From: an uncultured Holophagales bacterium
Lineage (GTDB): Bacteria; Acidobacteriota; Thermoanaerobaculia; Multivoradales; UBA5704
Assembly: GCA_963842525.1 (NCBI GenBank)
Contig: CAWJGT010000003.1
Location: 256,001-320,000 of the forward strand
Length of the DNA stretch: 64,000 bases
Direction: 5' to 3'
In this document: positions 1 through 22,077 of the stretch, one piece after another
Position numbering within the stretch: the first letter of the stretch is position 1
Layout of the letters: each line of letters opens with the position of its first letter
Notes under the pieces: model-generated
Database searches by the model: none
What the model was told of the DNA's origin: nothing
What the model saw: the letters and a program-made list of their open reading frames with translations, nothing else
Program-made: the position numbers and the translations under genes

Positions 1-1792
1 GGCGATGCCTCTCTACGACGAGGCGATCCGCCGCTATCGCGGGCTGGGCGATCTGCGGGGCTTGGCCGCGGTCCTCGACCGGCGCGGCACCGCCCTGGCC
101 CGGCTCGGCAGGTTGCCGGACGCCCTGGCCTCCTACCGCCGGGCTCTCGCCATCTTCCGGTCCACCGGCGAGCCCGGGAGCGAGGCTCACACCCTGGCCA
201 ACGTGGGGTGGATCCACGACGCGCTCGGCGATCCGCGGGCCGCCCTGGCCTGCCAGGAGCGGGCCCTCGGGCTGTTCCGCCGCCTGGGCGACCGCCATGC
301 CGAGGCGGAGACCCTGCTGGCCGTGGCGCGGGCCGAGCGCCGGCGCGGCCGCCTGGACCCGGCGCGCTCCCGCATCGAGGAGGCGCTCCGGCTCCTGGAA
401 GCCCTGCGCGGCGAGCCGCGCAGCCCGGAGCTGCGCACCTCGTATGTCGCCGTCCGCTACGACTTCTTCGAGCTTGCCATCGACCTCCTCATGGACCTCC
501 ACCGGCGCGATCCGCGGCAGGGCTTCGACGCCCGGGCCTTCGAGGTCAGCGAGCGCGCCCGGGCACGCAGCCTGATGGAGGAGATGGCCGCGGCGCGCTC
601 GCGGCAGCAACCCGGCGCGGACGATCACCCAGCGCCGGAGCCGCTCCGTCTGGAGGGGGTCCAGAGCCTCCTCGATCCGGACACGCTCCTCCTGGAGATC
701 GCGCTCGGCGAGCCGGCGAGCCATCTGTGGCTCGTGAGCCGGGACGGTCTGATCTCCCGGCGGCTCCCCGGCCGGGCGGCCCTGGAGGCGCAGGCGCAAA
801 GGGTCCGCGATCTGCTGCCGCGCAGCCACCGCCGGGGCGTCCGCCGGCAGGCCGACCTGGAGGCCGCCGCCCTCGGGCGGACCCTGCTCGGACCGGTGGT
901 CGACCAGATCGGGAGCCGCCGCCTGGTGATCGTGGCCGACGGTGCCCTCCTGGGTGTCCCCTTCGCCGCCCTGCCCATTCCCGACGGACCGGCGGCCGGC
1001 CGGCCGCTCCTGGCCGACCATGAGGTGGTCCAGCTTCCCTCCGCCTCCGTGCTCGGCCTCCTGCGCCGCCAGATGGCGAGCCGCCGGCCGCCGCCCCGCA
1101 CCCTCGCGGTGGTGGCGGACCCGGTCTTCACCGCGGACGACCCGCGCCTGCGGCGAGGCGACGTCCGGCTTGCCGCCCTGCCGGCTCTCGCGCGGCTTCC
1201 CTTCGCCGGCAGAGAGGCGGAAGCGCTCCTGCGCCTGGTGCCGGCCGAGGACCGGCTTGCCGCGCTCGGCTTCGCCGCCAGCCGGGAGACCGTGCTGGGC
1301 GGGGGGCTGGCCGATTACCGCATCGTCCACTTCGCCACCCACGCCTTCCTCGATGCCGGGCACCCCGAGCTGTCGGGGCTCGCCCTCTCCCGCTTCGACC
1401 CGGGCGGACGGCCGCGGGAAGGCGATCTGCGCGCCTGGGAGATCTACGGCCTCGATCTGCCGGCCGACCTGGTGGTGCTGAGCGCCTGCCGCACGGCGCT
1501 GGGCCGCCACGTGCCCGGCGAGGGCCTGATGGGCCTCACCCGCGCCTTCCTCCATGCCGGCGCCGGCCGCGTTCTGGTGAGCCTCTGGAACGTCAACGAC
1601 GAGGCCACGGCCGAGCTGATGAGTCACTTCTACCGCAACCTGCTGGAGCGCGGTGTCCGCGGCGTCCGCGGTGTCCGCGGCGTCCCGGCCGGCCGCGCCC
1701 TGCGCGAGGCCCAGCTCGCGCTGCGCAGCGATCCCCGTTGGGAGGCGCCCTACTACTGGGCGGGCTTCACGCTGCAGGGAGATTGGAGGTGA
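1..1792 (+). CDS. TPR-repeat + CHAT (caspase HetF-associated) protease, 5'-truncated by the window edge
   Basis: TPR-like repeats (A..LAN.G.I...LG....AL...ERAL); CHAT catalytic motifs IVHFATHA and LVVLSACRT; C-terminal PYYWAGFTLQGDW. Confidence 0.92.
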   Translation, partial: AMPLYDEAIRRYRGLGDLRGLAAVLDRRGTALARLGRLPDALASYRRALAIFRSTGEPGSEAHTLANVGWIHDALGDPRAALACQERALGLFRRLGDRHAEAETLLAVARAERRRGRLDPARSRIEEALRLLEALRGEPRSPELRTSYVAVRYDFFELAIDLLMDLHRRDPRQGFDARAFEVSERARARSLMEEMAAARSRQQPGADDHPAPEPLRLEGVQSLLDPDTLLLEIALGEPASHLWLVSRDGLISRRLPGRAALEAQAQRVRDLLPRSHRRGVRRQADLEAAALGRTLLGPVVDQIGSRRLVIVADGALLGVPFAALPIPDGPAAGRPLLADHEVVQLPSASVLGLLRRQMASRRPPPRTLAVVADPVFTADDPRLRRGDVRLAALPALARLPFAGREAEALLRLVPAEDRLAALGFAASRETVLGGGLADYRIVHFATHAFLDAGHPELSGLALSRFDPGGRPREGDLRAWEIYGLDLPADLVVLSACRTALGRHVPGEGLMGLTRAFLHAGAGRVLVSLWNVNDEATAELMSHFYRNLLERGVRGVRGVRGVPAGRALREAQLALRSDPRWEAPYYWAGFTLQGDWR

Positions 1793-1872
1793 TCTGAACA
1801 AATCGCCCTTCCGCCGGGTCACTAGGGCCTGGACAGAGACGAACGAGATCGGCAACCGCCAAAGGAGGCAAG

Positions 1873-2007
1873 ATGAACCGCGAAGCATTCGGCCCCAACG
1901 TGCTCGGACCCGTCCATGAGTCCACTCCTCCGCCCGATGAGAACGACGGTTCCAAGACCGGTCGAGAGGTCCCGCCTGCCACGCCGCCGAAGCCTGGGCG
2001 GAGCTGA
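1873..2007 (+). CDS. 44-aa Pro-rich small protein (MNREAFGPNVLGPVHESTPPPDENDGSKTGREVPPATPPKPGRS)
   Basis: AAAGGAGG Shine-Dalgarno at 1861-1868, ATG 1873, TGA 2005-2007; fills the gap between the CHAT and caspase genes; below the ORF-track length cutoff. Confidence 0.6.
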   Translation: MNREAFGPNVLGPVHESTPPPDENDGSKTGREVPPATPPKPGRS

Positions 2008-2031
2008 TCCGGGCCTCTGGAGGAACCAACC

Positions 2032-4064
2032 ATGCCCGAGCCGCGCCGCAAGCATGCGCTCGTCATCGGCATTGACCGCTATCCCGGGATGGGCGAGAAG
2101 CTCCAGCTCCGGGGGTGCGTCAACGACGCCAAGCTCATCACGCAGGAGCTGTGCGGCCGGTTCGGGTTCCCTTCCAAGGACGTGACCGTCCTGAAGGACG
2201 AGGCGGCGACCCGGGACGGCATCCTGTCGGCGATGCGCGGGCTGCTGGAGCGGGTGGGCCGCGACGAGGTCGTGGTCGTCACCTACAGCGGCCATGGCTC
2301 ATGGATGCCCGATCCCGACGGCGACGAGCCGGACGGCCGCGACGAGACCATCGTCCCCTTCGACAGCGGCCGGGGGGACCACCCCTGCCGCGATATCCCC
2401 GACGACGAGATCCATGCCTGGCTGCTCGACCTGAGCGAGGTCACCCCCTACATCACCCTGATCTTCGACTCCTGCTTTTCGGGGGGGATCGTCCGCGACA
2501 CGTTCTCGGCGCGGACCCGCTGGGTGCCGCCCCACGACCGCCCGGTCGAAGCTGCCCGCCGCTTCCGGCCGCGCGCGCGGGGCCTGCGCTGTTCCCCGTC
2601 GCCGAAAGGTCCCAGCGGATGGCTCCCGCTTGAGCGAGCGCTATATGCTGCTTGCGGGCTGCCGCCACGACGAGTGCTCGCACGAGCATGCGGCCCGGCC
2701 GGAGAGATGGCGGGTGGCCTTCTACCACGGAGCGCTCACCTACTTCCTCTGGAAGGAGATGGACGAGGCATGCGCGGAGGATGAGCTATCGCGACATGTT
2801 CGAGCGTGCGAGCGGCCGGGTGACGGCCGGTTTCCCGCCAGCATCCACAGCTGGAAGGGGCGCGGGACCGCGGGCCGTTCGGCTCCCGCCTCTTCGCGCC
2901 CTCGCGCTTTCTGCCTGTTTGCGGTCGCCGGGGGGAGCGGATCACGATCGGCGGCGGGGCGGCGCACGGGCCTGACGGTCGGATCGGAGTGGGCGATCCA
3001 CCCCCAGGGGCGCCAAGGCCGCGGACGGGACTCCGCGCCTCGCTCTGGCCCGGGTCTGCCGGGTCGACGCCGTGCAGGCGGAGGCGAGATCCGTGGGGGA
3101 GGACGGCTCGTCGTCCCGTGCAGGCCGGGGGACCGGGCCTTCGAGCACGCCCACCAGTACGGTGAGATGCGGCTGGCCGTCGAGATCGACGCGCCGGAAG
3201 GTTCGCGGGAGGACCTGGCCCGGGCTGTCCATCGCTCGAGCCTGTTGCGCCTGGCGAAGAGGAGGGAAAGCGGCAGGCGAAGGTTACCTCCTCTCTCCGC
3301 GACAGCGGTGGAGCGAAGTGATCCCGTGCCGCAGCTCGGAACGGTCGCCGAGCCGGTATGGGCTGTTGTCGGGCAGGACGGCGATCTGCTGATGCCGGTG
3401 TGATCCCCGCTGGAGAGCCCGGCGCTCTCGGCCGGCTCGTCGACAACCTCAATGCCCGCGCCCGCTACGAGAACATCCTGCAGCTCGAAAATCACGATCC
3501 GGAGAGCCGGCTAAGGGGTGCATCCGTTTCCGCCTGCTGCGCCGGCAAGGCGAGAGATGGGAGCCGGCCGAGGGAGACTCCGCCGTCTTCGCCGAAGGGG
3601 AGAGACTGGCCCTGGAAGTCGAGAACCGGTGCGACGGAGCCGGTCTACATCAGCGTCCTGGACCTCGGCCTCTCCGGACGGGTCAGCCAGGTCTATCCTG
3701 TACGCGGCGCCCGCGAGCCGCTGGCGCCGGGCAGGACCCTGCAGGTCGGCGTACGGAAAGGCGAGGAGCTGGAGTTGTACATGCCCCGGGCCTTCCCGTT
3801 CACCGGCGACCCCGCGACCGCCGAAGGCACCGAGCACCTCAAGCTCTTCGCCACCACCGGCGAGGCCGACTTCGAGCTGCTGGAGCAGGGGGATACCGCG
3901 CCGTGCGCGCGACGCGCCAATCCGCGGACCCGCTGGCCGAGCTGCTGAGCGCGGCCCTGGCCGAGGACGCCATGCGCGAGATCCGGCCCACAGGCCCATG
4001 TCCCGGACGCCGACTGGACCACGGTGACGCGCCCGTTCCTCTGCGGCGGAGGAAAGGGTCGTGA
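2032..4064 (+). CDS. caspase family (peptidase C14) protein with C-terminal DUF4384-like domain; several frameshifts
   Basis: HALVIGIDRY..LRGCVNDA, His motif YSGHGS, Cys motif FDSCFSGG; continues in frames 2630-3403 (LLAGCR, HGALTYFL) and 3358-3948 (VYISVLDLGLSG, EHLKLFATT); a TGA overlaps the next GTG. Confidence 0.8.
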
Positions 4065-6949
4065 AGTACCGGGATTTCGTGGTGCAGATCGGGCCGCCGG
4101 CCGGAGAGGTCTTCCCGGTGCGGGTCCTGGAGTCGCCGGCGGGTGCCGGTTCCGGCGAGTCCGTATGCCTGAGATGGTGCCGGCGGGTTCGAGCAGCGGC
4201 GAGGGTGCGCGAGACGTGGCCGGGCCGCTGCACGGCGGCTCTCTGCCCGCGCCCGAGGAGATGGGACGGAGGCTCTTCGCGGCTCTCTTCACGGGCGAGA
4301 TCCGGGACCGCTACTACCAGAGCCGGGGTGGCATCGACGACGGCGAAGGTCTGCGCATCCAGATCCGCTGCGATCCGCGCCAGCCGGATCTCCTGCCGAT
4401 CCAGGCCCTGCCCTGGGAAGCTCCTCTTTCAATCCGACGCCCGCTGCTTTCTCGGCCTCGACCGCCGAACGCCGGTCGTCCGCTATCTGGATGTGCCCGC
4501 GCCGGTGGAGCCGGCACCCCTGCCGGAACGGCTGCGGATCCTTGCCGTCCTCACCGCGCCGCCCGCATCGCCGAACAGTCCGCTGCTCGACCTGGAGCGG
4601 GAGCGCCGCTGGATCGAGGAGGCCTGCGGCGCCCAGCCGCGCCTCGAGCTGACGATCCTGGAGCGACCCGATCCGCAGGCCCTCCGCGACGAGCTGCTGC
4701 GTGCGGTGTCTCGCCGGGAGCCCTACCACGTGCTCCACTTCGCGGGGCACGGCACCTTCGACGGCGAGCGCGGCGAGGGAGCGCTGCTCTTCGCGACCGC
4801 GGAGGGCGAGGCGCGGCCGTTGACAGGGGACGAGCTGGCGCTCCTGGTGCGCGGCACCGGCGGGCTGCGGCTGGCCGTCCTCAACGCCTGCCACAGCGGC
4901 AGGATGGGTGCGGAGCCGGACCAGGATGCCTTCGCCGGCGTGGCGGCGGCGCTGCTCCTGGGCGGCCTCCCCGCGGTGCTCGGCATGCGCCGGCCCATCC
5001 CGGACGACTCGGCCGTCGCTTTCAGCGCCACCCTCTACCGGCGCCTCGCGCTGGGCGAGCCGATCGACGCCGCGGTCACCGAGGCCCGCCTGGCCATCTA
5101 CCGCCGCGGCCGCCCGGCGGCGGAGTGGAGCACGCCGGTGCTCTTCCTGCGCGCCCCCGACGGCCGGCTCTTCGCGGGCGAGGAAGGCGGCGACGCTGCC
5201 GCGCTCGCCGGCTACCTGGGGCGCCTCCGCGAGGCCTGCGCCGCGGCGTTCGCGACCCAGCTCGTCCGGCCCGACCGCCTGTACGTACCGCAGTTCGCCG
5301 GCCCGCACGGTGGAGAGCCGGCCGCCGAGGTCGAGCTGCTTGGCGAGATGCTCGGCTTCTGGCAGGGCGAGCAGCCGCGGGTCGCGGTCCTCGGCAACTA
5401 TGGGATGGGCAAGAGCTATTTTGCCTGGAAGACCGTGCTCGATCAGGCCGAGCGCGCTGGCGGAGCGCGGGGCCGCATCCCCGTGCTCTTTCCGCTGCGC
5501 GACTTCAACTACGGGGCCGCCGAGGCTGCGGAGGGGCTGCGGCACGACCTGGTGGACCAGATCCTGGGCCATCTCCGGCGGCTCGACTTCCCGGTGGCGT
5601 CGCGGCGCGAGCTCGTGCGCTGGATCGAGGACGGCCGCATCGGCATCGTCCTCGACGGCTTGGACGAGCTGCAGATCCCCGGCAACGTCTCGTGGCGGAG
5701 CGTCCTCGCGCCCCTCGCCGCCATCCCCGGCGCGTGCTTCGCCGTCACCGCGCGCACGGCCTATGTGGGCGGCGCGGCGGAGCTCGACGGCTGGCGCGTC
5801 CTCCACCTCCTGGAATGGAGCGAGCGGGAGTGGCGGCGCTTCCTGGAGCTCCGGGAGGACCGGCTCGCCGCGGTCGGCGGCGTCGATGCCTTCCTTGCCC
5901 TGGTGGCGAACCGACCCCAGCTCTCCCAGCTCACCACGCGCCCCCTCTGGTGCGCCATGATCGCGGCGGTCGCCGACCGGATCGCCGGCCTGGAGGACCT
6001 GGATCTCCCCGGGCTCTACCAGGAGTTCTTCGACGAGGCTGTCCGGCGCCGCAAGCTGGCGCACCAGGTCCTGTCCGTCCCGTGGCGCTACTGCGCCATG
6101 GAGCGCTTCGCCGAGGAGTGCGTGCTCGAGCGCCGGTCGTCGCTGCACGAGCGCCAGCTCGTCGCCCTGCTGACCGCGCTCTTCGAAACCATCGGGGAGC
6201 CGCGGCTGCGCGAATACCTGGCGCAGGAGGCGAAGACGTACGCCTTCCTCAACTGCGATCCCTACCGCCACTACAGCTTCGGGCATGCCTCGTTCGAGGG
6301 CGATTTCCTGGCCGCGCGCATCGCCCGCCGGCTCGTCGGGGAGGCCACGGGGCGGCCGTCGGGGCCGCCGGAACGGGTCCCCGGGCGCGACGTCCTCCTG
6401 GCCTGGGGCCTCGACGAGGACCAGGTGACCTTCGCGGCCGGCATCCTTCAGGGCGACCGGATCCTCCGCTCCCTGGGGATGCTGGAGCCCGAGGACGAGG
6501 GCCATGCGCAGCTCTACGCCGCCGTCTCCGAGGACCTCCGGAAGCGCCTGGAGAGCGACGGCGAGCCGCCGCCGCTGCGGCGCAATCTTTTCCGCCTTTT
6601 GCTCGCGCTGTCGCGTGGCCGGCGGCGCCCGCGGCTGCGCGGCCTTCGCCTCGACGGCGTGGATCTGTCAGGCCTCGACCTGTCCGGCTGCGACTTCGAG
6701 AACGTGGGGTTTGAAGGGGCCAACCTCTCCGCGGCGCGCTTCGCGAACAGCCGGCTGGCGCGCTGCGTCTTCCATGGCGCGGTGATCGACGGCGCCGACT
6801 TCACGGGCGCCGATCTGGCCGGGGCCGATCTGCGCGGGGTCGACCTGCCGCAGGTCCCGCCGGTCCTCGCCGGCCTGCGCAACGCGGACAGGGCCCAATT
6901 GGACGCGCGGGAGCGCCGGATTTTCGCGCTCTCTGACCGGGAGGGTTGA
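4061..6949 (+). CDS. CHAT-NACHT-pentapeptide repeat protein (NLR-like STAND NTPase)
   Basis: CHAT YHVLHFAGHG / LAVLNACHSG; Walker A GNYGMGKS; Walker B IVLDGLDE; C-terminal A(D/N)L pentapeptides; compensating frameshifts ~4165-4430 (real segment ...GRRLFAALF...LPWE lies in the 4024 frame). Confidence 0.88.
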   Translation: MKYRDFVVQIGPPAGEVFPVRVLESPAGAGSGESVCLRWCRRVRAAARVRETWPGRCTAALCPRPRRWDGGSSRLSSRARSGTATTRAGVASTTAKVCASRSAAIRASRISCRSRPCPGKLLFQSDARCFLGLDRRTPVVRYLDVPAPVEPAPLPERLRILAVLTAPPASPNSPLLDLERERRWIEEACGAQPRLELTILERPDPQALRDELLRAVSRREPYHVLHFAGHGTFDGERGEGALLFATAEGEARPLTGDELALLVRGTGGLRLAVLNACHSGRMGAEPDQDAFAGVAAALLLGGLPAVLGMRRPIPDDSAVAFSATLYRRLALGEPIDAAVTEARLAIYRRGRPAAEWSTPVLFLRAPDGRLFAGEEGGDAAALAGYLGRLREACAAAFATQLVRPDRLYVPQFAGPHGGEPAAEVELLGEMLGFWQGEQPRVAVLGNYGMGKSYFAWKTVLDQAERAGGARGRIPVLFPLRDFNYGAAEAAEGLRHDLVDQILGHLRRLDFPVASRRELVRWIEDGRIGIVLDGLDELQIPGNVSWRSVLAPLAAIPGACFAVTARTAYVGGAAELDGWRVLHLLEWSEREWRRFLELREDRLAAVGGVDAFLALVANRPQLSQLTTRPLWCAMIAAVADRIAGLEDLDLPGLYQEFFDEAVRRRKLAHQVLSVPWRYCAMERFAEECVLERRSSLHERQLVALLTALFETIGEPRLREYLAQEAKTYAFLNCDPYRHYSFGHASFEGDFLAARIARRLVGEATGRPSGPPERVPGRDVLLAWGLDEDQVTFAAGILQGDRILRSLGMLEPEDEGHAQLYAAVSEDLRKRLESDGEPPPLRRNLFRLLLALSRGRRRPRLRGLRLDGVDLSGLDLSGCDFENVGFEGANLSAARFANSRLARCVFHGAVIDGADFTGADLAGADLRGVDLPQVPPVLAGLRNADRAQLDARERRIFALSDREG

Positions 6950-6952
6950 GCC

Positions 6953-8527
6953 GTGTGGGAGCCGCTGCTCGAACGCGAGATCGAGAGCTGCACGTCGCCG
7001 GGGTGGTGGCGCGGGAGCGGCCAGCGGACGGTGTTCTGTCTCCTCGACCCACCCCGCCACGCCCTGCCCGCGGAGGCCTACCGCAAGGCGCAGGAGAGCA
7101 CAGTGCAGGTGTTCGCCGCGGTCCAGCAGTACCGCGCCGCTCCGCTCCCCATCGGCCTGCAGGACGATTTCTGGACGGTGGCGCAGAGGGATCTCGGCCC
7201 CGCCTTCGATCGTCCCCTCGCAGCCGATACTGCCGGCTACATCCAGCGCGGCGGCACCGGCATCGTGGCGGCCATCGCCGCGGCCAAGCCGCGTCCGCCG
7301 GTCCTGCGGCTGGAGAGCGAAGGCTTCGTCGCGGCCTACCAGCGCCTCCAGCAGGAGGCCATCTCGTTCATGGAGGATGCGGCGCCGTTCTTCGGCGCCC
7401 TGGTCGGCGCCTGGCGCGAGGCCGAGGCGCGGGTCGCCACGCCCGGGGTCCGCGAGCTGCGAGCGGCGCTGGAGGGCTTCCGGTCGCTCCAGGGAGGGCT
7501 GAGCGGCTCCCTGCGGGGGATCGCCGGCCTCGCCCGGTCCCTGGGCGTGGACCTGGAGACGCCGGCCTACCGGCCGATTGCCCTGTACGAGAAGATCGCC
7601 GAGCTCGAAGAGGGGCTCGACGAAGCCGCCACCAACCGTGACAAGAAGGCGCTGGAAGACGAGATCCGGGCACGCGTAAAGCCGCAGGCCGTCGAGCCGC
7701 GCGCCGCCGTGGAGCTCGCCCTCTACGAGCTGCTCGACCGCCACGAGGACGACGAGGACTACCGCGAGACCATCGCGGCCTTCCGCGAGCTGCTCGCACA
7801 GCCGGTCCTCCCGCCGCTGCCTGACTGGCTCCCCCGGTCGGTCGCCGAGAAGGTCGAGGGCTTCAGCGGCGACTACCTCGTCCAGGCGATCCGTATCCGG
7901 CCGGAGGATCAGCACCGGCCGCACAAGGGGCACGGCGAGCTGGTCTCGCGCCTCCTGGAGCTGGCCATCGTCCTGGGCATCGATCCGGCGCGCTATGCGC
8001 GGCTGCAGCGATTCGTCTACATCTCCAACCTCAACCACAGCATTCACGCGCTCAGCGGCTACGCTGCCGGCCCGGCGCTCCTGGCCGCGGTCGAAAAGCT
8101 GGGCGAGACCCTGCTCGCCCGCCGCGCCTCGGACCGCGAGAGGCGGCTCCTGGAGCAGGACCGGATGGCTCGATTCCTCGCCGAGCTGGGGAGGTTCCAC
8201 CTGGTCTACGACGCCGGCCTGCGGCGGGTGGTCCTGGGCTTCGACCTCGCCGGCTTCTGCCGCCTGCTGGCCGATCTGGGCGCCCGGCTCCCTGCCGGCT
8301 GGGAGGAGCGGGCGGCCGATCTCGATCGCCGGTTCGCGGCGGTGCGCGAGCTCTACCAGCGGACCCTCCTGCGCGGCAAGGACCTGGCAGGCAGCCTGCT
8401 CGCCGGCGCGGCGCAGCTCGGCGCGAGCGCCGCGATCCTCTACTGCGACGGCTACCTGAACCAGATCCTGGCCCCCTGGCTCCAGGGGCGCGATATCTCC
8501 TACTCCTTTCTCGTGCCGAAATGGTGA
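6953..8527 (+). CDS. hypothetical 524-aa protein, possibly a degenerate EreA/ChaN/TIKI-like fold with a helical insertion
   Basis: Long ORF with GC3-rich codon usage, 3 bp after the NACHT gene; C-terminal R..L...LL....AILYCDG.....L....ISYSFLVPK pattern. Confidence 0.75.
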   Translation: MWEPLLEREIESCTSPGWWRGSGQRTVFCLLDPPRHALPAEAYRKAQESTVQVFAAVQQYRAAPLPIGLQDDFWTVAQRDLGPAFDRPLAADTAGYIQRGGTGIVAAIAAAKPRPPVLRLESEGFVAAYQRLQQEAISFMEDAAPFFGALVGAWREAEARVATPGVRELRAALEGFRSLQGGLSGSLRGIAGLARSLGVDLETPAYRPIALYEKIAELEEGLDEAATNRDKKALEDEIRARVKPQAVEPRAAVELALYELLDRHEDDEDYRETIAAFRELLAQPVLPPLPDWLPRSVAEKVEGFSGDYLVQAIRIRPEDQHRPHKGHGELVSRLLELAIVLGIDPARYARLQRFVYISNLNHSIHALSGYAAGPALLAAVEKLGETLLARRASDRERRLLEQDRMARFLAELGRFHLVYDAGLRRVVLGFDLAGFCRLLADLGARLPAGWEERAADLDRRFAAVRELYQRTLLRGKDLAGSLLAGAAQLGASAAILYCDGYLNQILAPWLQGRDISYSFLVPKW

Positions 8528-8540
8528 AAGGAGGAACGGC

Positions 8541-9206
8541 GTGGCAGATCTTTCCGATGTTCCCGCAGCCGCTGCCGAGACGGTGGAGAAGAGCTGCCGG
8601 GGGAACCGCTACTGCTCGTTCACCGGACCCTTTCACCCGGAGCACCTGGCGGGGACCGGCCGCGGCCGGCCGCACGTAGTGGGGCGCTGCTACAGCTTCG
8701 GCTGCGGTGCCTACGTCTGCGACCGCTGCGCGCACCGCCGGCCCCTGCCCGGGCCGGACGGCCAGGCTTCCGGCCGGCTCGAAATGCTGTGCTGCCCCTT
8801 TGACGGCGAGCCTCTCGGGCGCGGCGACACGTGGCTGGTCCTCAGCCCGGAGGGGCGGGTCCGTCTTCCCTTAACTGCTGAACGTGGAGGGTCAAAGATC
8901 ATGCTTCTCACCCGGCAGCACTTCATCGAAATCGGACAGCAGTACAAGGTCTCCGAGGGCGAGGCGGCCACCATGTTCAACGTCTATGAGAGCGGCTTCC
9001 GCGAAACGGCACCGCCACACGCGCCGATGGAGGTCAATGAAGGCGTCCTCCAGACAATCCATCTCATCATGGTGCTGGTCTCCGCCTACAAGAGCGGTGG
9101 GATCAGCGACGAGGAGCTGGCCCGGGGCCTTCAGAAAGCGTTTGCTGACCGGCAAAAAGCAGCGCAGCCGAAGCGCGGCTTTTTTGCACGCCTCTTCGGA
9201 AGGTGA
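8541..9206 (+). CDS. hypothetical Cys-rich Zn-finger protein with C-terminal amphipathic helix
   Basis: AAGGAGG RBS before GTG; CxxxxxC...CxxxxCxxxxCxxC...CCPFD; ends KRGFFARLFGR; possible internal start at 8901. Confidence 0.7.
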   Translation: MADLSDVPAAAAETVEKSCRGNRYCSFTGPFHPEHLAGTGRGRPHVVGRCYSFGCGAYVCDRCAHRRPLPGPDGQASGRLEMLCCPFDGEPLGRGDTWLVLSPEGRVRLPLTAERGGSKIMLLTRQHFIEIGQQYKVSEGEAATMFNVYESGFRETAPPHAPMEVNEGVLQTIHLIMVLVSAYKSGGISDEELARGLQKAFADRQKAAQPKRGFFARLFGR

Positions 9207-9252
9207 GCCCCGTTCGCCTGAAACCTCCGCATCCTCCCGCCGTATCTCCCTC

Positions 9253-9298
9253 TTGACGACAGATGTAGTCACCGGGTAGGATGACTACAGACGTAGGC
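9253..9298 (+). promoter_or_regulatory. sigma70 promoter with two BlaI/CopY-type operator boxes
   Basis: TTGACG (9253) N18 TAGGAT (9277); GACGACAGATGTAGTC (9255-9270) and GACTACAGACGTAGGC (9283-9298) resemble TACA-N2-TGTA. Confidence 0.7.
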
Positions 9299-9323
9299 AG
9301 ATGTGGAGAACGACGGAGGACGG

Positions 9324-9710
9324 ATGAACCCCAGATCGATTGGAGACCAGGAGCTGGCGGTGCTGCGGTACGTCGCCGAGCAGGGGCCGACGACGGTGGG
9401 CCAGGTGGCCGAAGGGTTCGGCGAGCCGCGGGGGCTGGCGCGCTCGACGGTGCTCACGATGATGGAGCGGCTGCGCCAGAAGGGGCATCTGGACCGCGAG
9501 CCGGTGGACGGTGTGTTCCGGTACTTCTCGCCGGTGCCCGAAGGAGAGCTTCTGCGCGGCGCGGTGCGGACGTTCGTGGAGAAGACCCTCGACGGGTCCG
9601 TGTCGCCGTTCGTCGCCTATCTCTCGGAGACGGCGGAGGTCTCGGAGAGTGAGCTGGCGGAGCTCGAGGATCTTGTGGCCCGGCTCAAGTCGAAAAGGAA
9701 GGAGGGTTGA
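9324..9710 (+). CDS. BlaI/MecI/CopY family transcriptional repressor
   Basis: ELAVLRYV..GP.TV..V....LARSTVLTMMERLRQKGHL; GSVSPFVAYL; GGAGG RBS before ATG 9324. Confidence 0.93.
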   Translation: MNPRSIGDQELAVLRYVAEQGPTTVGQVAEGFGEPRGLARSTVLTMMERLRQKGHLDREPVDGVFRYFSPVPEGELLRGAVRTFVEKTLDGSVSPFVAYLSETAEVSESELAELEDLVARLKSKRKEG

Positions 9711-9711
9711 G

Positions 9712-11685
9712 ATGGACGGCTCGGCAACCCTGATCGGCCTGATCGGCCGTGCCTCGCTCCAGGGGGCGATCGCGATTGTCGCGGTGTGGGCCGTCTGCCG
9801 GCTCTTCCCGCGCCTGCCTGCCTCGCTGCGTTGCGGGCTCTGGTGGCTCGCCTGCCTGAAAGTGGTCCTCGGGCTCGTCTGGACCAACCCGGTACCGCTG
9901 CCGGTTCTGCCGGCCGCCGAGCGGCCACCCGTGACGCTCGTCGCCACGGCTCCCATGGCCGAGGCGGGGCCGGCTGCGGCCCACCCCTCGGCACCGCTCG
10001 ACGAGGCGGCGCCCTTCCCCTGGACGCTGGTACTGGTGGGGCTCTGGGCCGCCGGTCTCGTTGGACATCTCGCCTGGACCACCGGCCAGCTCCGGCGGGT
10101 TCGGGCAATCGTCCGGGAGGCCGAGCCCGTCAAGGAACGCTGGGTCGTGGACCTCTTCGCAGGGCTCCGGGAAGAGCCCGCATCACCCCGCGCGCCGAGG
10201 TGCTTTCCGCAGAGGTCGAGACGCCGCAGGTCCTCGGTCTGTTCCGGCCGGGGTCTTGCTTCCCCGGCGCACGCTCTCCCGCCTCTCTCCCGCAGAGCTG
10301 GCGATGACCCTCTGCCATGAGCTGCTCCATGTGCGTCGCGGCGACCTGTGGCTCGGCTGGGTGCCGGCGCTGGCGCAGCGGCTGTTCTTCTTTCACCCCC
10401 TCGCGCGGCTCGCGGTGCGCGAGTATGCGTTGGCCCGCGAGGCCGCCTGCGATGCGGAGGTGCTGCGGGTCCTCGATCCCGCTCCTGACGCCTATGGCCG
10501 GCTTCTCTTGAGATTGGGCGTGGCGCCTCGGGTCCCGCGGCTGGCCGCGGCGGGCGCCGCGCCCTCGGTTGAAACTCTGAAAAGGAGACTGATGATGCTG
10601 CAACAAGCTTCGGATAGAAAGCGCCTTCATCCCGCCTGGTGGGGGCTGGTCGTCCTCGTGGCTCTGGTGGGCCTGATCCCGTTCCAGATGGTGGCCCAGG
10701 GCCCGGAGGAGGAGGTCGCTCCGGTGGCCGCGGTCGAGCCTGTGCCTGAGATCGCGCCTGTCCCCGAAGGCGCGCCGGTCCCCGTGGTCGAGCCTGCGCC
10801 GGAGGCCCTGCCTGTCCCTGCGGAAAGCTCTCCCCGCGCCCGAGGCCCTGCCGGCCGTGGCGGGCGTGCCCGGTGCAGCAGCGCCTGTGCCCGCTGTGGC
10901 GGGCATGCCCGGTGTGGCGAGCGTGCCTGGTGTGCCATCCCTGCCCGTCCTCGCCGCCGCCGTGCCAGGCGCCTATCCGGCACCTCATGCGAAGGGGGCC
11001 GGGCAGTGCCGCCGGCGCCTCCGCGGCCGCCCGCGCCGCCAACTCCACCCAGAGCGCCGAGGGCGCGGCACGCTTCGTGGACCGACGACGGCGATGATTC
11101 CTATGTCGTCCGGCTGGATGGCAACCATCACATCATGAGCGGTTCCAGCTCGGAGTCTAAAAAAGGCCGGCAAGCTCCTGGTCTGCTCCGGGATCTGGTT
11201 CGAGCGCGACGGCAAGGAGTACGTCATCCGCGATGCGGCGACCGTCCGGCAGGTCGAGGGTGCTCTTCAAGCCCCAGACTCAGCTCGGCGAGAAGCAGGC
11301 CGGCCTGGGTGAGAAGCAAGCCGGCCTGGGAGAGAAGCAGGCGAAGATCGGTGCCCAGCAGGCCAAGCTCGGCGCCAAGATGGCTGGTCTCGGCGCGAAG
11401 CAGGCCTCTCTCGCCGCCCAGCAGGCGAGCCGGGGAGGGGAGGAGGATGACGATCTCGAAGAGAAGATGGAGGATCTTGGCCGCCAGATGGAGGCACTCG
11501 GCCGCCAGATGGAATAAGCTCGGCGAGCCCATGGAGGCAGCTCGGGCGCCAGCAGGAGAAGCTCGGAGAGCAGCAGGAGGCGCTGGGTGGGCAGCAGGAG
11601 AAGCTGGCTGGAGCAGGCCGAGCGCCAGCTCCGGACCATCCTGGACAAGGCGCTCGCGAGCGGTCTGGCCCAGGAAGTGAAGTAA
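9712..11685 (+). CDS. M56 family (BlaR1-like) metallopeptidase with Pro-rich linker and coiled-coil tail; frameshifted
   Basis: N-terminal TM helices, HELLHVRRGD (HExxH), REAACD, LKRRLMML; LGEKQAG heptads; spread over frames 9511-10320, 10061-11680 and 11233-11517. Confidence 0.85.
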
Positions 11686-11686
11686 A

Positions 11687-11927
11687 CCTCACCCCCTGTC
11701 CCCCTCTCCCATCGCACTCCCCCCACCGGGAGAGGGGGAACGCGTCTGATTGCCTGCGGCATTTCGGGGGAGGGTTGGAGTGGCGGAGAGGCGTTCGGGT
11801 GCAGCATGCTGTGCCCCTACAGCCTCCACTGGCAGGCAGCTCCGGTAAAAACCGCGAGGCTCCGCCTACGTCCCCCCTCTCCCGGTGCGGGGAGGGGGGC
11901 GACGGGAGAGGGGGCCAGGGGGTGAGG
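11687..11927. repeat. inverted pair of ~55-bp REP-like units (11687-11740, 11871-11927) with a nested GTAG-type palindrome (11796-11820)
   Basis: CCTCACCCCCTGTCCCCCTCTCCC...CCGGGAGAGGGGG and its reverse complement; minus strand GTAGGGGCACAGCATGCTGCACCCG. Confidence 0.85.
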
Positions 11928-13162
11928 TCACGGCCACAGCCACCAGATCGCCCCCCCCCCCGCCAGCGCCGCCCGAAGAGGACCGCCACCCGCCCGAAGA
12001 GAGCCCGGGTACCGAGGACGGCGACGATCCCCGCCTTGAAGACGAGGTTGGAGAGCACGGCGAGGAGGATCGCCCGCCAGCCGTCGCCCGCGGGGATGCG
12101 GCCGGCGTCGACCAGCCGGGCGGTCGAGAGGGTGAGGGCGTCGACGTCGGTCAGCCCGGAGAGCGCGGCCACTGTGTAGAGGCCGGCGGTGCCGAAGCGG
12201 TCGCGGGCGAAGGCGACGGCGAGGAGCACCGCGGCGTAGAGGGCCCCGAAGAAGAGGGCCGACCTGAGCTGCGCCGGGTTCCCCGGTTCGGGGGGCTCCG
12301 CGGCGTGGTCCCGGTCGGCGAGCCAGGCGACGACCGAAAGCACCGCCGCCACGCCGAACATGGCCCCGATCGGCGGCGCCAGGGCGAGGATCTGACCGGG
12401 GCCACGACCGCGATCTCGACCAGCACGCGGGCGAAAACGACGGTCGAGGCGATCATCACCACCAGGGCCGCCAGCCGGGAGAGCTTCCGGCGCCTCCTTC
12501 GTCCGGCGGGCGTAGCTGACCGTGGTGGCCGTGCTCGAGATGAGGCCGCCGAGGACCCCGGCGAGCACCGTCCCCGCCCCGCGCCGAACAGCTTGTACGC
12601 CACATACCCCGCCAGCGACAGCCCGACGATCAGCACCACCATCCACCAGATCTGGTAGGGATTGAGCACCCCATAGGGCCCAATGTCCCGGTCCGGCAGG
12701 ATCGGCAGGATGACCAGGGCAGAAGGACGAGCTGCATGATCGCCCGGATGTCCTGCTCCCCCATCCGCCCCACGAACCGGTGGAGGGGCTCCTTCAGATG
12801 AAAAGGACCGCAACCGCCCCGCCCAGGACGACCGCGAGCGTCAGCGGCGCGACGACCGTCCGGGCGCCGACGCCGTACATGACGAGAGCCGCGAACTCCG
12901 TCGTCTGCCCCGGATCGGCCTCCCCCTCGCGCAGCCGCACCAGGTTCCCCGACATCACCAGCCCCGCCACCGCCAGCAACCCCACCGCCACCACCCACCC
13001 GCCGAACGCCCGTCCGAGCAGCGCCGCCACCGCCCCGAGCAGCGTGATCAGGGCGAACGTGCGGATCCCCGCGATGGCGGAGTCGATCCGCTCCCGCTGC
13101 AGCCCGACCAGGAGCCCGAGCCCGAGGGCGACGGCGAGCTGGAGGAAAGGCTGCGGGATCAA
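11928..13162 (-). CDS. MgtC/SapB family membrane protein with DUF4010; frameshifted
   Basis: [75 protein letters not shown]. Confidence 0.85.
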
Positions 13163-13274
13163 TTCAAATAAGGTCTCTCCTGCCGGGCGGGCGGTCGGGT
13201 ACGGACGGACGGACGAGGGGATCGTGCGCGAGGCGCTGGAGGGAGAGGGACCTGCTCCGATCTGCTCCGGGAGT

Positions 13275-13516
13275 CGGACAGTTCGCGCCACGGATCGGAC
13301 GGTTTGCGCCAGCGGTGGGACGGTCCATGAAGCGGGTCGGACAGTCCGCCCCGCAGGTCGGACAGATTGTACCGCGGAGCGGACAGTTCGCGCCGAAGGT
13401 CGGACAGTTCCCGCCGCGGGGTGACCGCCATCATATCCGGCGTGAACCGTCCGACCCACGGAGCAAACCGTCCGACCTGCTTTGGTGGCGCCCGCGAGAT
13501 CGGCGCGAACTGTCCG
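13275..13516. repeat. degenerate 21-bp tandem array (7 units) followed by three inverted units
   Basis: CGGACAGTTC-like cores at 13275, 13296, 13317, 13338, 13359, 13380, 13401; reverse-complement cores at 13444, 13465, 13507. Confidence 0.85.
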
Positions 13517-13659
13517 TTCCGGTCTGGTGGCCACAGCAAAACCGGAGCGAGGTTCCGACCTGGTCTGGTGGTCGTCCCAAAATCGGGTCAACCGTTCGCC
13601 GCCCCGAACGTCGCCGTAGAGACGCCTGGTCCGGGACCACGAACCTCACGGCGAAGCCA

Positions 13660-14000
13660 AGCGAGAACGAGAAACCATTGGCGAAGATCGTCCCGGCCAG
13701 GGAAAAGGAAAACGAGCCGCACGCCCTTTCCGGGTTCCAAGGAGGCCCGAGGACGACGATCCGTTCTTCTCAACGATTGAGGAGATCGTGGAAAGCCGTT
13801 TCGAGCACAGGCCGAGAGTGCTGGGAGAAACCTCGGCCGCCCGCCAGAGGACGTCTACGCGGTGAACGGCTATCTGCTGGACACCAACGTTCTTTCGGAG
13901 CTCCCGCCAAAAGCCCCTGCCTCCAAGTTCTGGAGCGCATCCGCCGGGTTCCTGCGCTGACCACATCATCGATTTGTGTGCTGGCTTCCGTCATGGAGCC
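13660..14000 (+). pseudogene. decayed type II TA pair: Phd/YefM-like antitoxin 3' part plus VapC/PIN toxin 5' part
   Basis: EKPLAKIVP...DDDPFFSTIEEIVESR ending in GTGA, which overlaps GTG 13862 of MNGYLLDTNVLSEL; truncated at a REP fragment near 14000. Confidence 0.65.
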
Positions 14001-14069
14001 CCCCCGCCGGGAGAGGGGGGACGCATTCGGAGCTACCGTGCCGGACCTCGCCGAACTGCCTCAGCAACG

Positions 14070-14125
14070 TTCCCCCTCTCCCGGGGATGGGCGGGTGGGA
14101 GATGGGGAGGGGGCCAGGGGTGAGG
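14070..14125 (-). repeat. REP-like unit (partial partner at ~14001-14020)
   Basis: TTCCCCCTCTCCCGGGG...GGGGAGGGGGCCAGGGGTGAGG. Confidence 0.8.
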
Positions 14126-14645
14126 TCACGGCCACAGCCACCAGATCGCCGCCCCGCCCGCCAGCGCCAGCCCGAAGAGGACGGCGATGCGGCCGAACAA
14201 GGCCCAGCATGGCCCCGATCGGCGGCCGACGGCCCGAGCTGGCTCAGCGCCACGATCGCGACCTCGACCAGCACCCGGGCGAAGACCACCGTCGATGCGA
14301 TCATCACGACGAGAGCGGCCAGCACCGTCCGTGCACCCGCTCCGAACAGCTTGTAGGCTACGTACCCGGCCAGCGACAGGCCGACGATCAGCACCACCAT
14401 CCACCAGATCTGGGAGGGGTTGAGCACCCAGATGGCCCCATGTCCCGGTCCGGCAGGACCGGCAGGATGACCAGGGCGAGGAGGACGAGCTGCATGACCG
14501 CCGCAGGTCCTGCTCGCCGATCTTCCCCACGAACCGGTGGAGCGACTCCTTCAGATGAAGCAGGACCGCGACCGCGCCCCCCAGGACCACGGCGAACGCG
14601 AGCGGCGCGACGACCGTCAGGGCTCCGCCCGATTACATCACCAGG
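14126..14645 (-). pseudogene. internally deleted, 5'-truncated paralog of the MgtC/DUF4010 gene
   Basis: [28 protein letters not shown] and ...AAIWWLWP* match the 11928-13162 gene with substitutions and two internal deletions. Confidence 0.8.
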
Positions 14646-14834
14646 GCCGCGAGCAGAGAGTGCCGTTTGCCTACGATGGCGCATGGCTTTATCTCTCTTT
14701 TTCTTTCTGCGCTTACTAGCTCGGAAAACCCTTGTCTTGCCGATCTGTTGCGTATAATCGGTAACGCGAAATCGCTCAACGAGACCGGGAATGGGGTAGA
14801 CCCCCGTCCCTGACAAGCGACAAGGGAGCCTGGA

Positions 14835-14860
14835 GAGAAATTTCTAAGTTCGTCCGTCCA
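14835..14860 (+). promoter_or_regulatory. candidate ECF promoter upstream of the haloperoxidase
   Basis: GAGAAATTTCTAAGTT-CGTCCGTC-CA; same motif and spacing at 21923-21948(-) and 22891-22916(+). Confidence 0.5.
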
Positions 14861-14943
14861 ATTTGGGAATAGCTTTGCGGCTGAAATGACCTAAGGGAGT
14901 GCGTGCGACATTGATACCAGGTTAATGGTAGAAAGGAAGAACG

Positions 14944-16445
14944 ATGGCGACTGACTACATTCTTATCTAGAACGGTTTGTTTAAAGCAAACCGCGTCAGC
15001 CACACCGACGGCAGCAAGGAGCAGAACGGTCCAACGCTGCAGCTCGCGTGCCATGGCGATTGTGCACTTGGCAATGTATGACGCCTACGCGGGCGTAGTG
15101 AAAGAGCCGGCGAAATTGCCACATTACATCACGCCCGCCACGCCGCTCCATCAGGTTCCTCCATCCAGGCAGCGGTCGGGGGAGCCGCGTTCGAGACCCG
15201 ATGACTCTCTACCGAGCCAGCTCGAGTCTTCGAGGACAAGCTCTTGATGCATGGCGATGGATCGAATCCCGGGCATGATTTCGGCCGGCAGGTCGGGCAG
15301 GCGATCTTGATGGACCGCGAGGAGGACCCGGCAGCAAGTCAAGGCAAGTACCGGCCCACAAGGGACGTGGCGGGCACCGAGTTGATCAACAACCCTAGCC
15401 AGGGGTTCCACGGACCGGCCTATGGTACCGCCAAGGCTTTCGCCCTCAAAGCCCTCCACAAGTTGAACAAGCCGCCCTTCGACGACACTGTCTACGAGAA
15501 GGCGCTGCGGCAGGTTCGCGCCAAGGGAATCAAACCGGAGTTGATGGGAGAGTTCCCGCCAATCTCCAAAACGACCGCCGCTCTGCGGAAGAGACCCTGA
15601 TCGGGATCTTCTGGGGCTACGACGGTGCCGCCGGGCTCGGCACGCCGCCGCGCCTCTACAACCAGATCGTACGGAAGATCTCGATCGCCAAGGGGACCAG
15701 CGAGCGCGACAACGCCAGGTTGTTCGCCTTCGTCAACGCCGCCATGGGCGATGCCGGCATCCTGGCCTGGGAGCAGAAGTACGTCCATGATTTCTGGCGG
15801 CCGGTGGTCGGAATAAGAGAGCACGACAAGTCGCTGGGCCCCATCGATGAGGGACAGCCGATGCCGGCGGCGGACCGGATCTCCAAGGACGCCGATCCCT
15901 CCTGGCTGCCCCTGGGCGCGCCTTCATCCAATTCGGCAAGTGCCTGCGTGATGACCGCCCAAGCGACCTTCCCATTCGCCAACGCGCAGTTCGGCCGGGT
16001 GAAGAACTTCACGCCGAACTTCCCGGCTTACCCCTCGGGCCATGCCACCTTTGGGGCGGCCGCCCTGCACATCCTTCGCCTCTTCTACAAAGTCCCCGCA
16101 GGAGATACAAACCCAGACACCCTGTTGAACGGGTTGAAGAACCCGGATGGCACGGACATCTTCTTCGTCTCCGACGAGCTCAACGACAAGACGCAGGACA
16201 ACAACGGCACAGTCCGCCCGCTCCACCGCCGCAAGTTCAAGGACGGTGTGTGGGACATGATCATCGAAAACGGATTGAGCCGCATCTTCCTGGGTGTCCA
16301 CTGGAGCTTCGACGCCTTCGCGGTCAAGGCCAACGGCGCACCCAATCTGTCGAAGAACATCGGCGGCGTGCGGCTCGGATTGGATATCGCGGAGGACATC
16401 TTCGCCTTCGGCGGTAAGAAGGCGCCGAAGAAGTCGTCGGTTTGA
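14944..16445 (+). CDS. vanadium-dependent haloperoxidase (chloroperoxidase-like, PAP2 superfamily); 5' half frameshifted
   Basis: GPT..SRAMAIVHLAMYDAY; WEQKYVHDFWRP; FPAYPSGHATFG; ENGLSRIFLGVHW; in-frame TAG at 14968 where Trp is expected. Confidence 0.85.
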
Positions 16446-16551
16446 GGGGGGAGCAACCTCGCAGGAGGGACGGTGCTGGGCCGTTCCTCCTGGGCTCACC
16501 CCATCTTCAATTTTCTCGCCTTGTGCTCAGGCCGACTTTCATCACAGGTCG

Positions 16552-18473: not shown

Positions 18474-18543
18474 GCTTTTTCCCTCCTTGCTTGGAAACGT
18501 ATCTCGCATAGCCGGCCAGGAACCTCCAGCTTCGCTTCCCGCA

Positions 18544-21796: not shown

Positions 21797-21922
21797 CCAC
21801 CAAGGGTGGGCCCGGCACAAAGGCAGACTGGAGTCGATACAAGACACAAGATAGCACGGGGCTGAAGCGTTCGTCGAGCTGCCGAATTACCGCCGATGCT
21901 TATCCAGATCTCATCCTAAAGG

Positions 21923-21948
21923 TAGACGGACGTTGCCGCCGTTTTCCG
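21923..21948 (-). promoter_or_regulatory. candidate ECF promoter upstream of the CHAT operon
   Basis: minus strand CGGAAAACGGCGGCAA-CGTCCGTC-TA. Confidence 0.5.
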
Positions 21949-22077
21949 AAAATCCCAACCAGAGATTGGACATAATGCCTCTTAGTCACACTACCTGGTG
22001 AAGCCGGGCTACACATCAAGAGCACCCACTTCTTATACAATCGACCCGTTACTACGGTCTCGTCGCCAACCTCCTCC

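Follow-up and report, generated by a model that had tools for sequence, protein, structure and literature searches.

Gene content of the region

We analysed the first 9206 positions of a 64,000-nucleotide stretch of DNA (the window) from contig C3 (GenBank CAWJGT010000003.1, positions 256,001 to 320,000) of an uncultured Holophagales bacterium (Acidobacteriota), the genome of which (G000; 9.95 Mb, about 68% G+C) has been assembled into 34 contigs. In this region, where the third-position G+C is a good delimiter of the coding frames, six open reading frames (ORFs) occur, all on the + strand. The 3' part (596 of 950 codons) of a TPR-CHAT gene (1..1792; Pfam CHAT E 3.8e-68, TPR_12 E 9.8e-23) is followed by a 44-amino-acid (aa) ORF (1873..2007), a caspase-family (C14) gene (2032..3948; Pfam Peptidase_C14 E 1.1e-18, PADLOC caspase E 2.1e-16), a gene for a CHAT-NACHT-pentapeptide STAND protein (4061..6949; Pfam CHAT E 1.7e-32, Pentapeptide E 2.4e-14), a gene for a conserved 524-aa protein, designated here as the partner (6953..8527), and a gene for a 221-aa protein, Cys-rich in its N-terminal domain and helical in its C-terminal half (8541..9206). 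The two CHAT domains score above the 24-bit cut-off of the profile PF12770 (230.5 bits for TPR-CHAT, 113.5 for CHAT-NACHT), and the caspase above that of PF00656 (68.2 bits; cut-off 21.4). As read off the translation, the His and Cys motifs are intact in each of the three proteases, namely FATHA (1331-1345) and LSACRT (1478-1495) in TPR-CHAT, YSGHGS (2284-2301) and FDSCFSG (2464-2484) in the caspase, and FAGHG and LNACHSG in the CHAT-NACHT protein. We take the motifs of the two CHAT proteins to be their catalytic dyad positions.

A previous sequence-only reading of this DNA had regarded these genes, described as tightly coupled, as a candidate multi-tier proteolytic cascade or cell-death system. 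For candidate substrates it had named the 44-aa peptide or else two orphans, which are our partner and the Cys-rich protein. All the genes that it named were found on the + strand, and its assignment of His and Cys motifs to the three proteases was confirmed. Tight coupling holds for the last three genes, the partner starting 3 nt after the NACHT stop codon and the Cys-rich protein 13 nt after the partner stop, and not for the other two junctions, which measure 239 nt (TPR-CHAT to caspase, with the small ORF inside) and 112 nt (caspase to CHAT-NACHT). From the lines of evidence presented below, we propose, with a probability of about 0.55, that positions 1-9206 comprise two separately conserved modules lying side by side, and not one cascade of three proteases. 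Module A most likely consists of a sigma factor of the extracytoplasmic function (ECF) type, a zinc anti-sigma factor, an exported TPR-CHAT protein, the small ORF and the caspase, and extends from upstream of the window to position 3948. Module B (4061-9206) is best regarded as a rare NLR-like system of three genes, made of the CHAT-NACHT-pentapeptide protein, the partner and the Cys-rich protein. The region was divided in this way because synteny indicates that each unit is conserved independently.

Independent conservation of the two modules

First, a profile scan of species-representative genomes with a NACHT alignment returned 37 loci, three of which are true clade members; the partner gene is adjacent in all three (3/3) and in none of the other NACHT loci (0/34). 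The three clade genomes span two phyla (Gemmatimonadales, Acidobacteriaceae and, for G706, Thermoanaerobaculia), and in each the partner adjoins a NACHT-pentapeptide gene. At loci L018 and L019 the gene order is that of the window: a TIR-NACHT-pentapeptide gene, the partner on the same strand, and directly after it a gene whose N-terminus carries a homologous Cys-rich domain. At locus L007/L020 (G706) the partner is convergent (tail to tail) with a Metallophos-NACHT-pentapeptide gene, and, on the NACHT strand and 4.3 kb upstream, a 131-aa ORF has a homologous Cys-rich domain. The NACHT gene is thus accompanied by the conserved partner and Cys-rich genes in four of four genomes. In addition, homologues of the NACHT, partner and Cys-rich proteins (the latter 76% identical) occur on contigs of the same size (12,686 bp), and NACHT and partner homologues on equal-sized contigs of 31,582 and 15,822 bp, co-occurrence being deduced in these three cases from the size of the contigs. 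The protein P0206, from a contig equal in length to that of the partner homologue P0011, was rejected as a further NACHT co-occurrence, being a pure pentapeptide-repeat protein. Further searches for related loci with the partner, with P0152 and P0013 (genome contigs) and with A3 and P0004 (metagenome contigs) gave no matches.

Second, profiles of the module A proteins (ECF sigma, anti-sigma, CHAT and caspase) gave no match in L018-L020. Third, in a sample of 41 genomes from the same family and order (G000 included), caspase homologues occur in 24 and the partner family in G000 only, so that the 40 relatives lack the partner and 23 of them carry the caspase. In larger samples, the partner family was found in 1 of 401 genomes of the phylum (G000) and in 2 of 401 genomes of the class (G000 and G706). 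Fourth, module A recurs as a cassette in this bacterial family. Fourteen caspase contexts were fetched, one of which was too short, and the 13 informative ones were scored with profiles made from sequences of this analysis: a CHAT gene adjoins the caspase in 10 of them, an ECF sigma gene is present in nine, and six (L014, L016, L017, L064, L066 and L070) show the order ECF sigma, (anti-sigma), TPR-CHAT, caspase on one strand. Three contexts (L067, L068 and L069) have neither a CHAT nor an ECF gene. Over the 173-aa N-terminal query, the caspase homologues, which have open frames of 690-805 aa, are 52-59% identical.

A single multi-tier cascade, in which CHAT-NACHT and/or TPR-CHAT would cleave and activate the caspase, and the peptide or the orphans would be substrates or effectors, appears improbable to us on these grounds. 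It would account for the six co-directional genes and for the conserved TPR-CHAT/caspase pair, and the activation of a caspase by a CHAT protein, with an associated sigma factor, has been published (10.1101/2023.06.23.546230). The sequence-only cascade idea is indeed reasonable for the TPR-CHAT/caspase pair as a conserved unit, though direct cleavage within this pair is doubtful, as explained below, TPR-CHAT being probably extracytoplasmic and the caspase not. Against the single cascade stand the gaps of 239 and 112 nt between the protease genes, the finding that modules A and B never occur together in the other genomes examined, and the swapping of the NACHT effector for TIR or Metallophos with both partner proteins retained. 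A single three-tier protease cascade is therefore not supported by co-conservation. Because TIR or a metallophosphatase replaces CHAT while both partners stay, the partner and the Cys-rich protein are also unlikely to be protease substrates; in line with the sequence-only reading, which had called them orphan partners, both are real and accompany the NACHT protein in a conserved way. As to the proximity of two CHAT genes, the G000 genome contains 63 CHAT-domain matches (about 57 genes), a very large expansion, and three C14 caspase matches; since there are 63 CHAT matches in 9.95 Mb, two nearby CHAT genes are by themselves weak evidence.

Several points weigh against the separation into two modules. 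The synteny sample for module B is small, with four genomes and three contigs for which co-occurrence is deduced from equal size. Furthermore, a sequencing run (X1) that contains 5% of the sequence words revealed a close relative, mostly below 95% identity and in short contigs. It has fragments of the genes for the caspase, the CHAT-NACHT protein, the partner and the Cys-rich protein (most of 2547-3484 having no cover), and one of its contigs, of 553 nt, covers the end of the caspase and most of the caspase-NACHT spacer (3485-4032). Because this contig joins the caspase end to the spacer, the juxtaposition of A and B is common to at least two close organisms, as a single cascade would also have it. 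Cross-talk from B to A might be possible too, by analogy with the CHAT-to-caspase activation documented elsewhere. The regions upstream of the blaI-type gene that follows module B are not syntenic with the window in four same-genus genomes, and for this reason we draw no insertion boundary for module B.

Module A as a possible split DdvA-like cassette

The complete TPR-CHAT ORF (950 aa; L001 14940-17792, in an extended locus that includes the sequence upstream of the window) starts 1,060 nt upstream of the window, the edge of which cuts it. The upstream ECF sigma gene envisaged by the sequence-only reading was found by Pfam at L001 11029-11634, together with a zf-HC2 anti-sigma gene (L001 11650-12417; 255 aa, one transmembrane segment). 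A 177-aa ORF and a Uma2-family endonuclease gene (identified by Pfam), both on the opposite strand (L001 12859-14777, - strand), split the anti-sigma/TPR-CHAT junction, which is contiguous in relatives. TPR-CHAT has a hydrophobic segment (signal or anchor) at residues 4-30 of its N-terminus, and no comparable segment was seen in the caspase or the CHAT-NACHT protein. In L014 (G011:C1:1061000-1080000, a complete genome), an anti-sigma part with its zinc motif and transmembrane segment is fused in frame before TPR-CHAT. From the N-terminal hydrophobic segment and this fusion behind an anti-sigma transmembrane segment, TPR-CHAT is predicted to be probably extracytoplasmic, and a direct cleavage of the caspase by TPR-CHAT is therefore doubtful.

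The C14 match of the caspase (2032-2784, first frame) spans only positions 1-152 of the 233 of the profile; a middle domain and a C-terminal domain weakly similar to DUF4384 (E 0.13) complete the protein. Sequence searches of the PDB gave only metacaspases, TPR proteins and pentapeptide proteins. In the sequences that precede the ECF, TPR-CHAT, caspase and NACHT genes, no convincing common motif of the ECF-promoter type was found.

The 44-aa ORF, located between TPR-CHAT and the caspase, has an AAGGAGG sequence 5 nt ahead of its ATG. The encoded peptide is hydrophilic, contains no Cys, is rich in Pro, Gly, Thr, Asp and Glu, and has no Pfam family and no PADLOC match. A counterpart, that is an ATG-initiated ORF of 38-60 aa with a strong Shine-Dalgarno sequence, was found in the gap of all seven co-directional CHAT-caspase loci. 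In each case (7/7) the start lies 80-180 nt past the CHAT stop, an AAGGAGG-like site is present, and the encoded peptide is hydrophilic and free of Cys. The same filter is passed by 104 of 2330 control windows (4.5%), and by 1.4% when a 5-mer Shine-Dalgarno is required. Neither sequence similarity among the gap peptides, nor a homologue of the 44-aa ORF, nor a third-position GC or codon-bias signal in this ORF was detected. We consider, as the sequence-only reading did in listing it, that this ORF is probably real, and that it belongs to module A. As a side observation, an extra ORF of about 75 aa, with the common motif W-W-x-Y-T-F-L, lies between the micro-ORF and the caspase in L017 (~8900-9330) and in L066 (where it starts 553 nt after the CHAT stop); it is absent from the window.

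This organisation has parallels in two published systems. DdvA of the DdvA/DdvS system of Myxococcus xanthus is a periplasmic TPR-CHAT anti-sigma factor (PMC11506125), which controls a defence island combining a cyclic-oligonucleotide-based antiphage signalling system (CBASS) and CRISPR; the same study reports DdvA-like proteins only from Myxococcota and one Comamonas. Module A likewise combines an ECF sigma factor, a zinc anti-sigma factor and a large, probably extracytoplasmic TPR-CHAT with a His-Cys dyad; the ECF sigma gene is adjacent to the anti-sigma gene, and in L014 the parts are fused as they are in DdvA. Unlike DdvA, the anti-sigma (255 aa) and TPR-CHAT (950 aa) proteins of our organism come from separate genes, which two minus-strand genes keep apart. 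What is conserved downstream is a caspase gene and not CBASS or CRISPR, and the host is a member of the Acidobacteriota. CHAT proteins are also mentioned, in a review, in the gene context of the ECF group ECF54 (PMC8999054).

The second system is that of the type III-B CRISPR locus of Haliangium ochraceum, in which SAVED-CHAT activates PCaspase, which in turn cleaves a sigma factor (10.1101/2023.06.23.546230). Similarly, CHAT, C14 caspase and sigma factor genes are clustered here, and in the relative G011 the cassette with the caspase homologue (L014) sits inside a type III-B CRISPR locus (Cmr3, RAMPs and a Cas6-like gene) beside a CHAT-SAVED gene, CHAT-SAVED being confined to this relative. 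Unlike the Haliangium locus, the scanned ORFs of the window include no SAVED, cyclase, Cas10 or CRISPR gene, and the caspase has as its CHAT neighbour a probably exported TPR-CHAT that comes with an ECF/anti-sigma pair; PCaspase was compared here by its published description.

By analogy with DdvA/DdvS, we propose that the periplasmic TPR-CHAT would sense an envelope signal, perhaps derived from a phage, and would then clip the anti-sigma factor, thereby releasing the sigma factor. The caspase would act as a cytoplasmic output or as a second regulatory protease. The small peptide, which we view as disordered, might be a bait or an inhibitor of the caspase, or a translational leader; any such role is at present a guess.

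Module B as a probable NLR-like protein with two conserved partners

The CHAT-NACHT protein begins with a CHAT domain, continues with a probable NACHT NTPase and a helical region, and ends in pentapeptide repeats, with the Walker A motif GNYGMGKS (5393-5416) and the Walker B motif LDGLDE (5651-5668). Intact orthologues of 952-963 aa (P0161, P0162 and P0163) were found. In the clade, the CHAT domain of the NACHT-pentapeptide protein is replaced by TIR (L018, L019) or by Metallophos (L007/L020, G706). According to Kibby et al. (10.1101/2022.07.19.500537), bacterial NACHT (bNACHT) proteins have a NACHT NTPase between an effector at the N-terminus and a repeat sensor at the C-terminus; the domains listed there include pentapeptide repeats, TIR, caspase-type peptidases and calcineurin-like phosphoesterases, and bNACHT genes are said there to be rarely in operons, and poorly conserved when they are. 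The NACHT protein of module B has the same three-part architecture of effector, NTPase and repeat sensor (CHAT, NACHT, pentapeptide). Unlike the bNACHT genes so described, it is accompanied by two extra genes that are conserved in all four genomes, and PADLOC has no matching NACHT model.

The partner has neither a Pfam nor a PADLOC family. A word search retrieved three homologues, and an exhaustive profile search of 1.84 billion representatives retrieved 155 at E<=1e-3, of which 22 reach E<=1e-30. The AF2 model of the partner (pLDDT 74.6) shows an alpha/beta core built from both termini and a helical insertion of about 370 residues. When aligned with VIA-align to 48,161 chains, it gave ChaN at rank 1 (Z 8.2, rmsd 6.8, 200 aligned residues), HopBA1 at rank 2 (Z 7.6, rmsd 4.2, 149 aligned residues), 2qgm at rank 15 and EreC at rank 16 (both Z 6.5), and, as a point that weighs against our assignment, these Z values of 6.5-8.2 fall in the range of the tool for models without a clear match. 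A Foldseek search with the same model, which the sequence-only reading had suggested as a check, likewise speaks against us in that it gave no match at E<=0.001. EreA/EreC, ChaN, HopBA1 and BcR135/136 share one fold, according to a study of the EreC structure (PMC7979712). Because four members of this fold rank together, and because one of 17 distant homologues of the partner has a weak Pfam ChaN match (E 0.036), we propose that the modelled core of the partner resembles the ChaN/EreA/HopBA1 fold, from which it differs by the absence of a significant sequence match, by the helical insertion, and by the absence of His motifs. The motifs of its distant relatives (IHIQDAH and GGFH types) are indeed replaced in the partner family by CLLDPP and CDGY. 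Motifs of the IQDAH and GGFH types are presumably the catalytic motifs of the Ere/Tiki enzymes, and their replacement makes an esterase or Tiki-like catalysis unlikely; from these residues, a non-catalytic binding role appears likelier.

Proteins of 2,000-6,000 aa (P0027, P0031, P0042, P0048 and others) show a distant relationship to the partner family over their first 500-600 residues or so. Among 18 scanned proteins, five exceed 2,000 aa; four of these have no Pfam family and the fifth, P0035, has only a sub-threshold ACT match.

The 221-aa protein has no Pfam family and no PADLOC match. Its Cys-rich domain, in which C19, C25, C50, C60, C63 and C85 are invariant in six sequences, is presumed from this pattern to bind zinc. 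The AF2 model of the protein is poor (pLDDT 58.5). In the fold and feature searches of this analysis, the ESM Atlas gave scores of at most 0.83. A terminator-like hairpin occurs at 9166-9180.

After the TIR-NACHT gene and the partner, the loci L018 (10207-15718) and L019 (10186-15751) contain a Cys-rich/helical/pentapeptide protein and a distant homologue of the partner, and the next gene after this second pair encodes a DUF4062-NACHT protein (L018) or a TIR protein (L019), so that these loci look like tandem arrays of related sensor pairs. In L019, the first protein of the second pair lacks NACHT, and what it has in common with the NACHT protein is confined to the helical and pentapeptide part of the C-terminus (hhalign probability 99.3); its gene starts with the Cys-rich part and continues into the helical/pentapeptide region, and the distant partner homologue follows (probability 92.5). 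On account of this NACHT-less second pair, we regard the partner family as tied to the sensor region and not to the effector.

Proposed function of module B

Beyond the observed gene content, motifs, synteny and fold resemblance, all the functional steps are inferred; for the defence role, we rely on the architecture, on the swapping of effectors and on a distribution that is patchy. We propose that the N-terminal effector of module B is swappable, being CHAT in our organism and TIR or a metallophosphatase elsewhere; that NACHT would operate as an oligomerisation switch and the C-terminal helical and pentapeptide region as the sensor; and that the ChaN/EreA-fold partner and the Cys-rich protein would serve in sensing or regulation (as a co-sensor, a guarded target or an inhibitor) rather than as substrates. 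Upon activation, CHAT proteolysis would be released and would lead to growth arrest or cell death.

In its most specific form, our proposal is tentative, and we would give it slightly less than even odds. Module B would be an undescribed three-gene NLR-like immune system, present in at least two phyla, in which a His-less ChaN/EreA-fold protein and a Cys-rich zinc protein form an obligate sensing or guard complex with the pentapeptide sensor, the effector being CHAT, TIR or a phosphoesterase; module A would be a split DdvA-like envelope-sensing cassette, the micro-ORF of which encodes a disordered bait or inhibitor of the caspase.

Other observations weigh against this immune interpretation. 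The NACHT score of the window protein (26.4 bits) is just below the curated cut-off of 26.7, those of its orthologue P0161 and of the L007 homologue being 28.4 and 36.8 bits, respectively. Our analysis gave no evidence for a defence role, and PADLOC-DB 2.0.0 has no model for the partner, the Cys-rich protein or the NACHT system. The flanks of the region are made of housekeeping and regulatory genes, and not of a defence island. The PADLOC survey that the sequence-only reading had pointed to gave matches at the domain level only (caspase; SAVED_CHAT and BovA on the CHAT part; TPR), and none for the partner, the Cys-rich protein or the peptide. The sequence-only statement that the locus lacks a recognisable effector stands, as no gasdermin family and no other known effector was found among the ORFs scanned in 1-23000.

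It is conceivable, though we regard it as unlikely, that module B is a STAND-type signalling or regulatory unit built from NLR-like parts, for instance for housekeeping proteolysis or for the sensing of a small molecule via the ChaN-like protein, with no role in immunity or cell death. Consistent with such a unit, no defence gene, phage gene or mark of a mobile element surrounds module B in the window, PADLOC made no system call, the neighbours in G706 are a response regulator and an ABC ATPase, and ChaN-fold proteins bind haem or hydrolyse small molecules (PMC7979712). What argues for immunity instead is that CHAT, TIR and calcineurin-like phosphoesterases are effector types of bacterial NACHT conflict proteins (10.1101/2022.07.19.500537), that the distribution of module B is patchy across phyla (Acidobacteriota and Gemmatimonadota) with absence from the relatives searched, and that further STAND and TIR genes adjoin module B in L018 and L019.

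Frame changes in the caspase and CHAT-NACHT genes

As assembled, no uninterrupted reading frame runs through the caspase gene. Ungapped tblastn with intact homologues revealed at least seven frame changes between ~2550 and ~3630, with a frame path of 1>2>0>1>2>1>0>1, the mapped segments being 44-71% identical to the homologues. The CHAT-NACHT gene has two compensating frame changes at ~4159 and ~4415, as compared with the orthologue P0161, so that the listed 962-aa ORF is in the wrong frame at residues ~34-119. The nine changes lie in about 1.9 kb (2550-4420), and none occurs in 4420-9206 or in the 2.85-kb TPR-CHAT gene.

We judge that these changes are assembly noise, with odds of roughly two to one in favour. 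Contig C15 (15,433 bp) duplicates positions 3551-18949 of the window with 98.1% identity, 208 mismatches and 73 gap openings, the differences being concentrated at 11000-15500 and 18000-18950, and it might represent either another strain or a duplicate that was not polished. It has three 1-nt insertions (window 5782-5848) that garble 22 codons, for which the window copy agrees with all three homologues; because these insertions contradict all three homologues, indel errors do exist in this assembly. C15 and the window differ by indels at 3635, 3886, 3985, 4041 and 4156, some of which (3635, 4041 and 4156) are at or near frame-change sites, and C15 ends (at 3551) within the noisy stretch, which points to a tangle in the assembly. 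Moreover, the homologous caspase segments are free of in-frame stop codons, the identity of the shifted segments (~44-63%) is similar to that of the intact N-terminal part (57-60%), and CHAT matches are split across adjacent pieces at four other places in the genome.

A locus in decay, in which the seven caspase and two CHAT-NACHT changes would be real, and the caspase (and perhaps the NLR-like gene) a pseudogene with no present function, is a less probable but serious possibility, to which we give somewhat under one chance in three. The clustering of the nine changes, with none in 4420-9206 or TPR-CHAT, would fit with it, as would the failure of C15 to restore the frame at ~4157 too, and the splitting between frames of the neighbouring BlaR1 and MgtC/DUF4010 genes. 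If the nine frame changes were real, the caspase and possibly the CHAT-NACHT protein would be dead in this organism, a further point against our main reading.

Neighbouring genes

Downstream of module B, a BlaI-type repressor gene (9297-9710, + strand), orthologues of which occur in five of five same-genus genomes, comes after a palindrome and a promoter-like site, the only one returned by our sigma-70 scan. It is followed by a BlaR1 M56 peptidase gene split over two frames (9297-11677 with blaI, + strand). An MgtC/DUF4010 membrane protein gene (11270-13645, - strand), located within the stretch duplicated by C15, is split over three overlapping frames. Farther downstream, a second TPR-CHAT gene (18547-21687, - strand; 1047 codons) is divergent from a pair of + strand genes (21976-24015) made of a 300-aa ORF and a zf-HC2 anti-sigma gene (22930-24015), and the stretch 18547-24015 may be another anti-sigma/TPR-CHAT unit. 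Upstream of module A, L001 39-9510 contains genes for a Ser/Thr kinase with PD40 repeats, a kinase-LANC_like (LanL-like) protein, a DUF1028 protein and a PAS-GGDEF protein, and appears as a regulatory neighbourhood and not as a defence island.

Significance

Bacterial NLR-like proteins have mostly been described as single-gene sensors, and partner-assisted or guard-type sensing is a central theme of the NLR biology of plants and animals. Our literature search retrieved no relevant paper linking NACHT/STAND with Tiki/TraB/EreA/GumN, and the papers found on NACHT, CHAT and pentapeptide proteins and on bNACHT, supplementary tables apart, do not describe the three-gene unit. The effector-NACHT-pentapeptide architecture is known in outline (10.1101/2022.07.19.500537), and for its two conserved partners no description was found in the literature searched or in PADLOC.

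Three consequences concern module A and the annotation of such genomes. First, module A carries the ideas of the ECF sigma/TPR-CHAT (DdvA) and CHAT-plus-caspase (PCaspase) systems from the Myxococcota into the Acidobacteriota. Second, its positionally conserved micro-ORF could be a missing substrate or inhibitor. Third, in a genome with about 60 CHAT genes, adjacent protease genes should not be read as one cascade. As to module B, the partner family provides a link to the N-termini of uncharacterised giant proteins with almost no Pfam domains, and a clade that keeps two invariant partner genes while its effector is exchanged would lend itself well to the study, in prokaryotes, of sensing that is partner-assisted or of the guard type.

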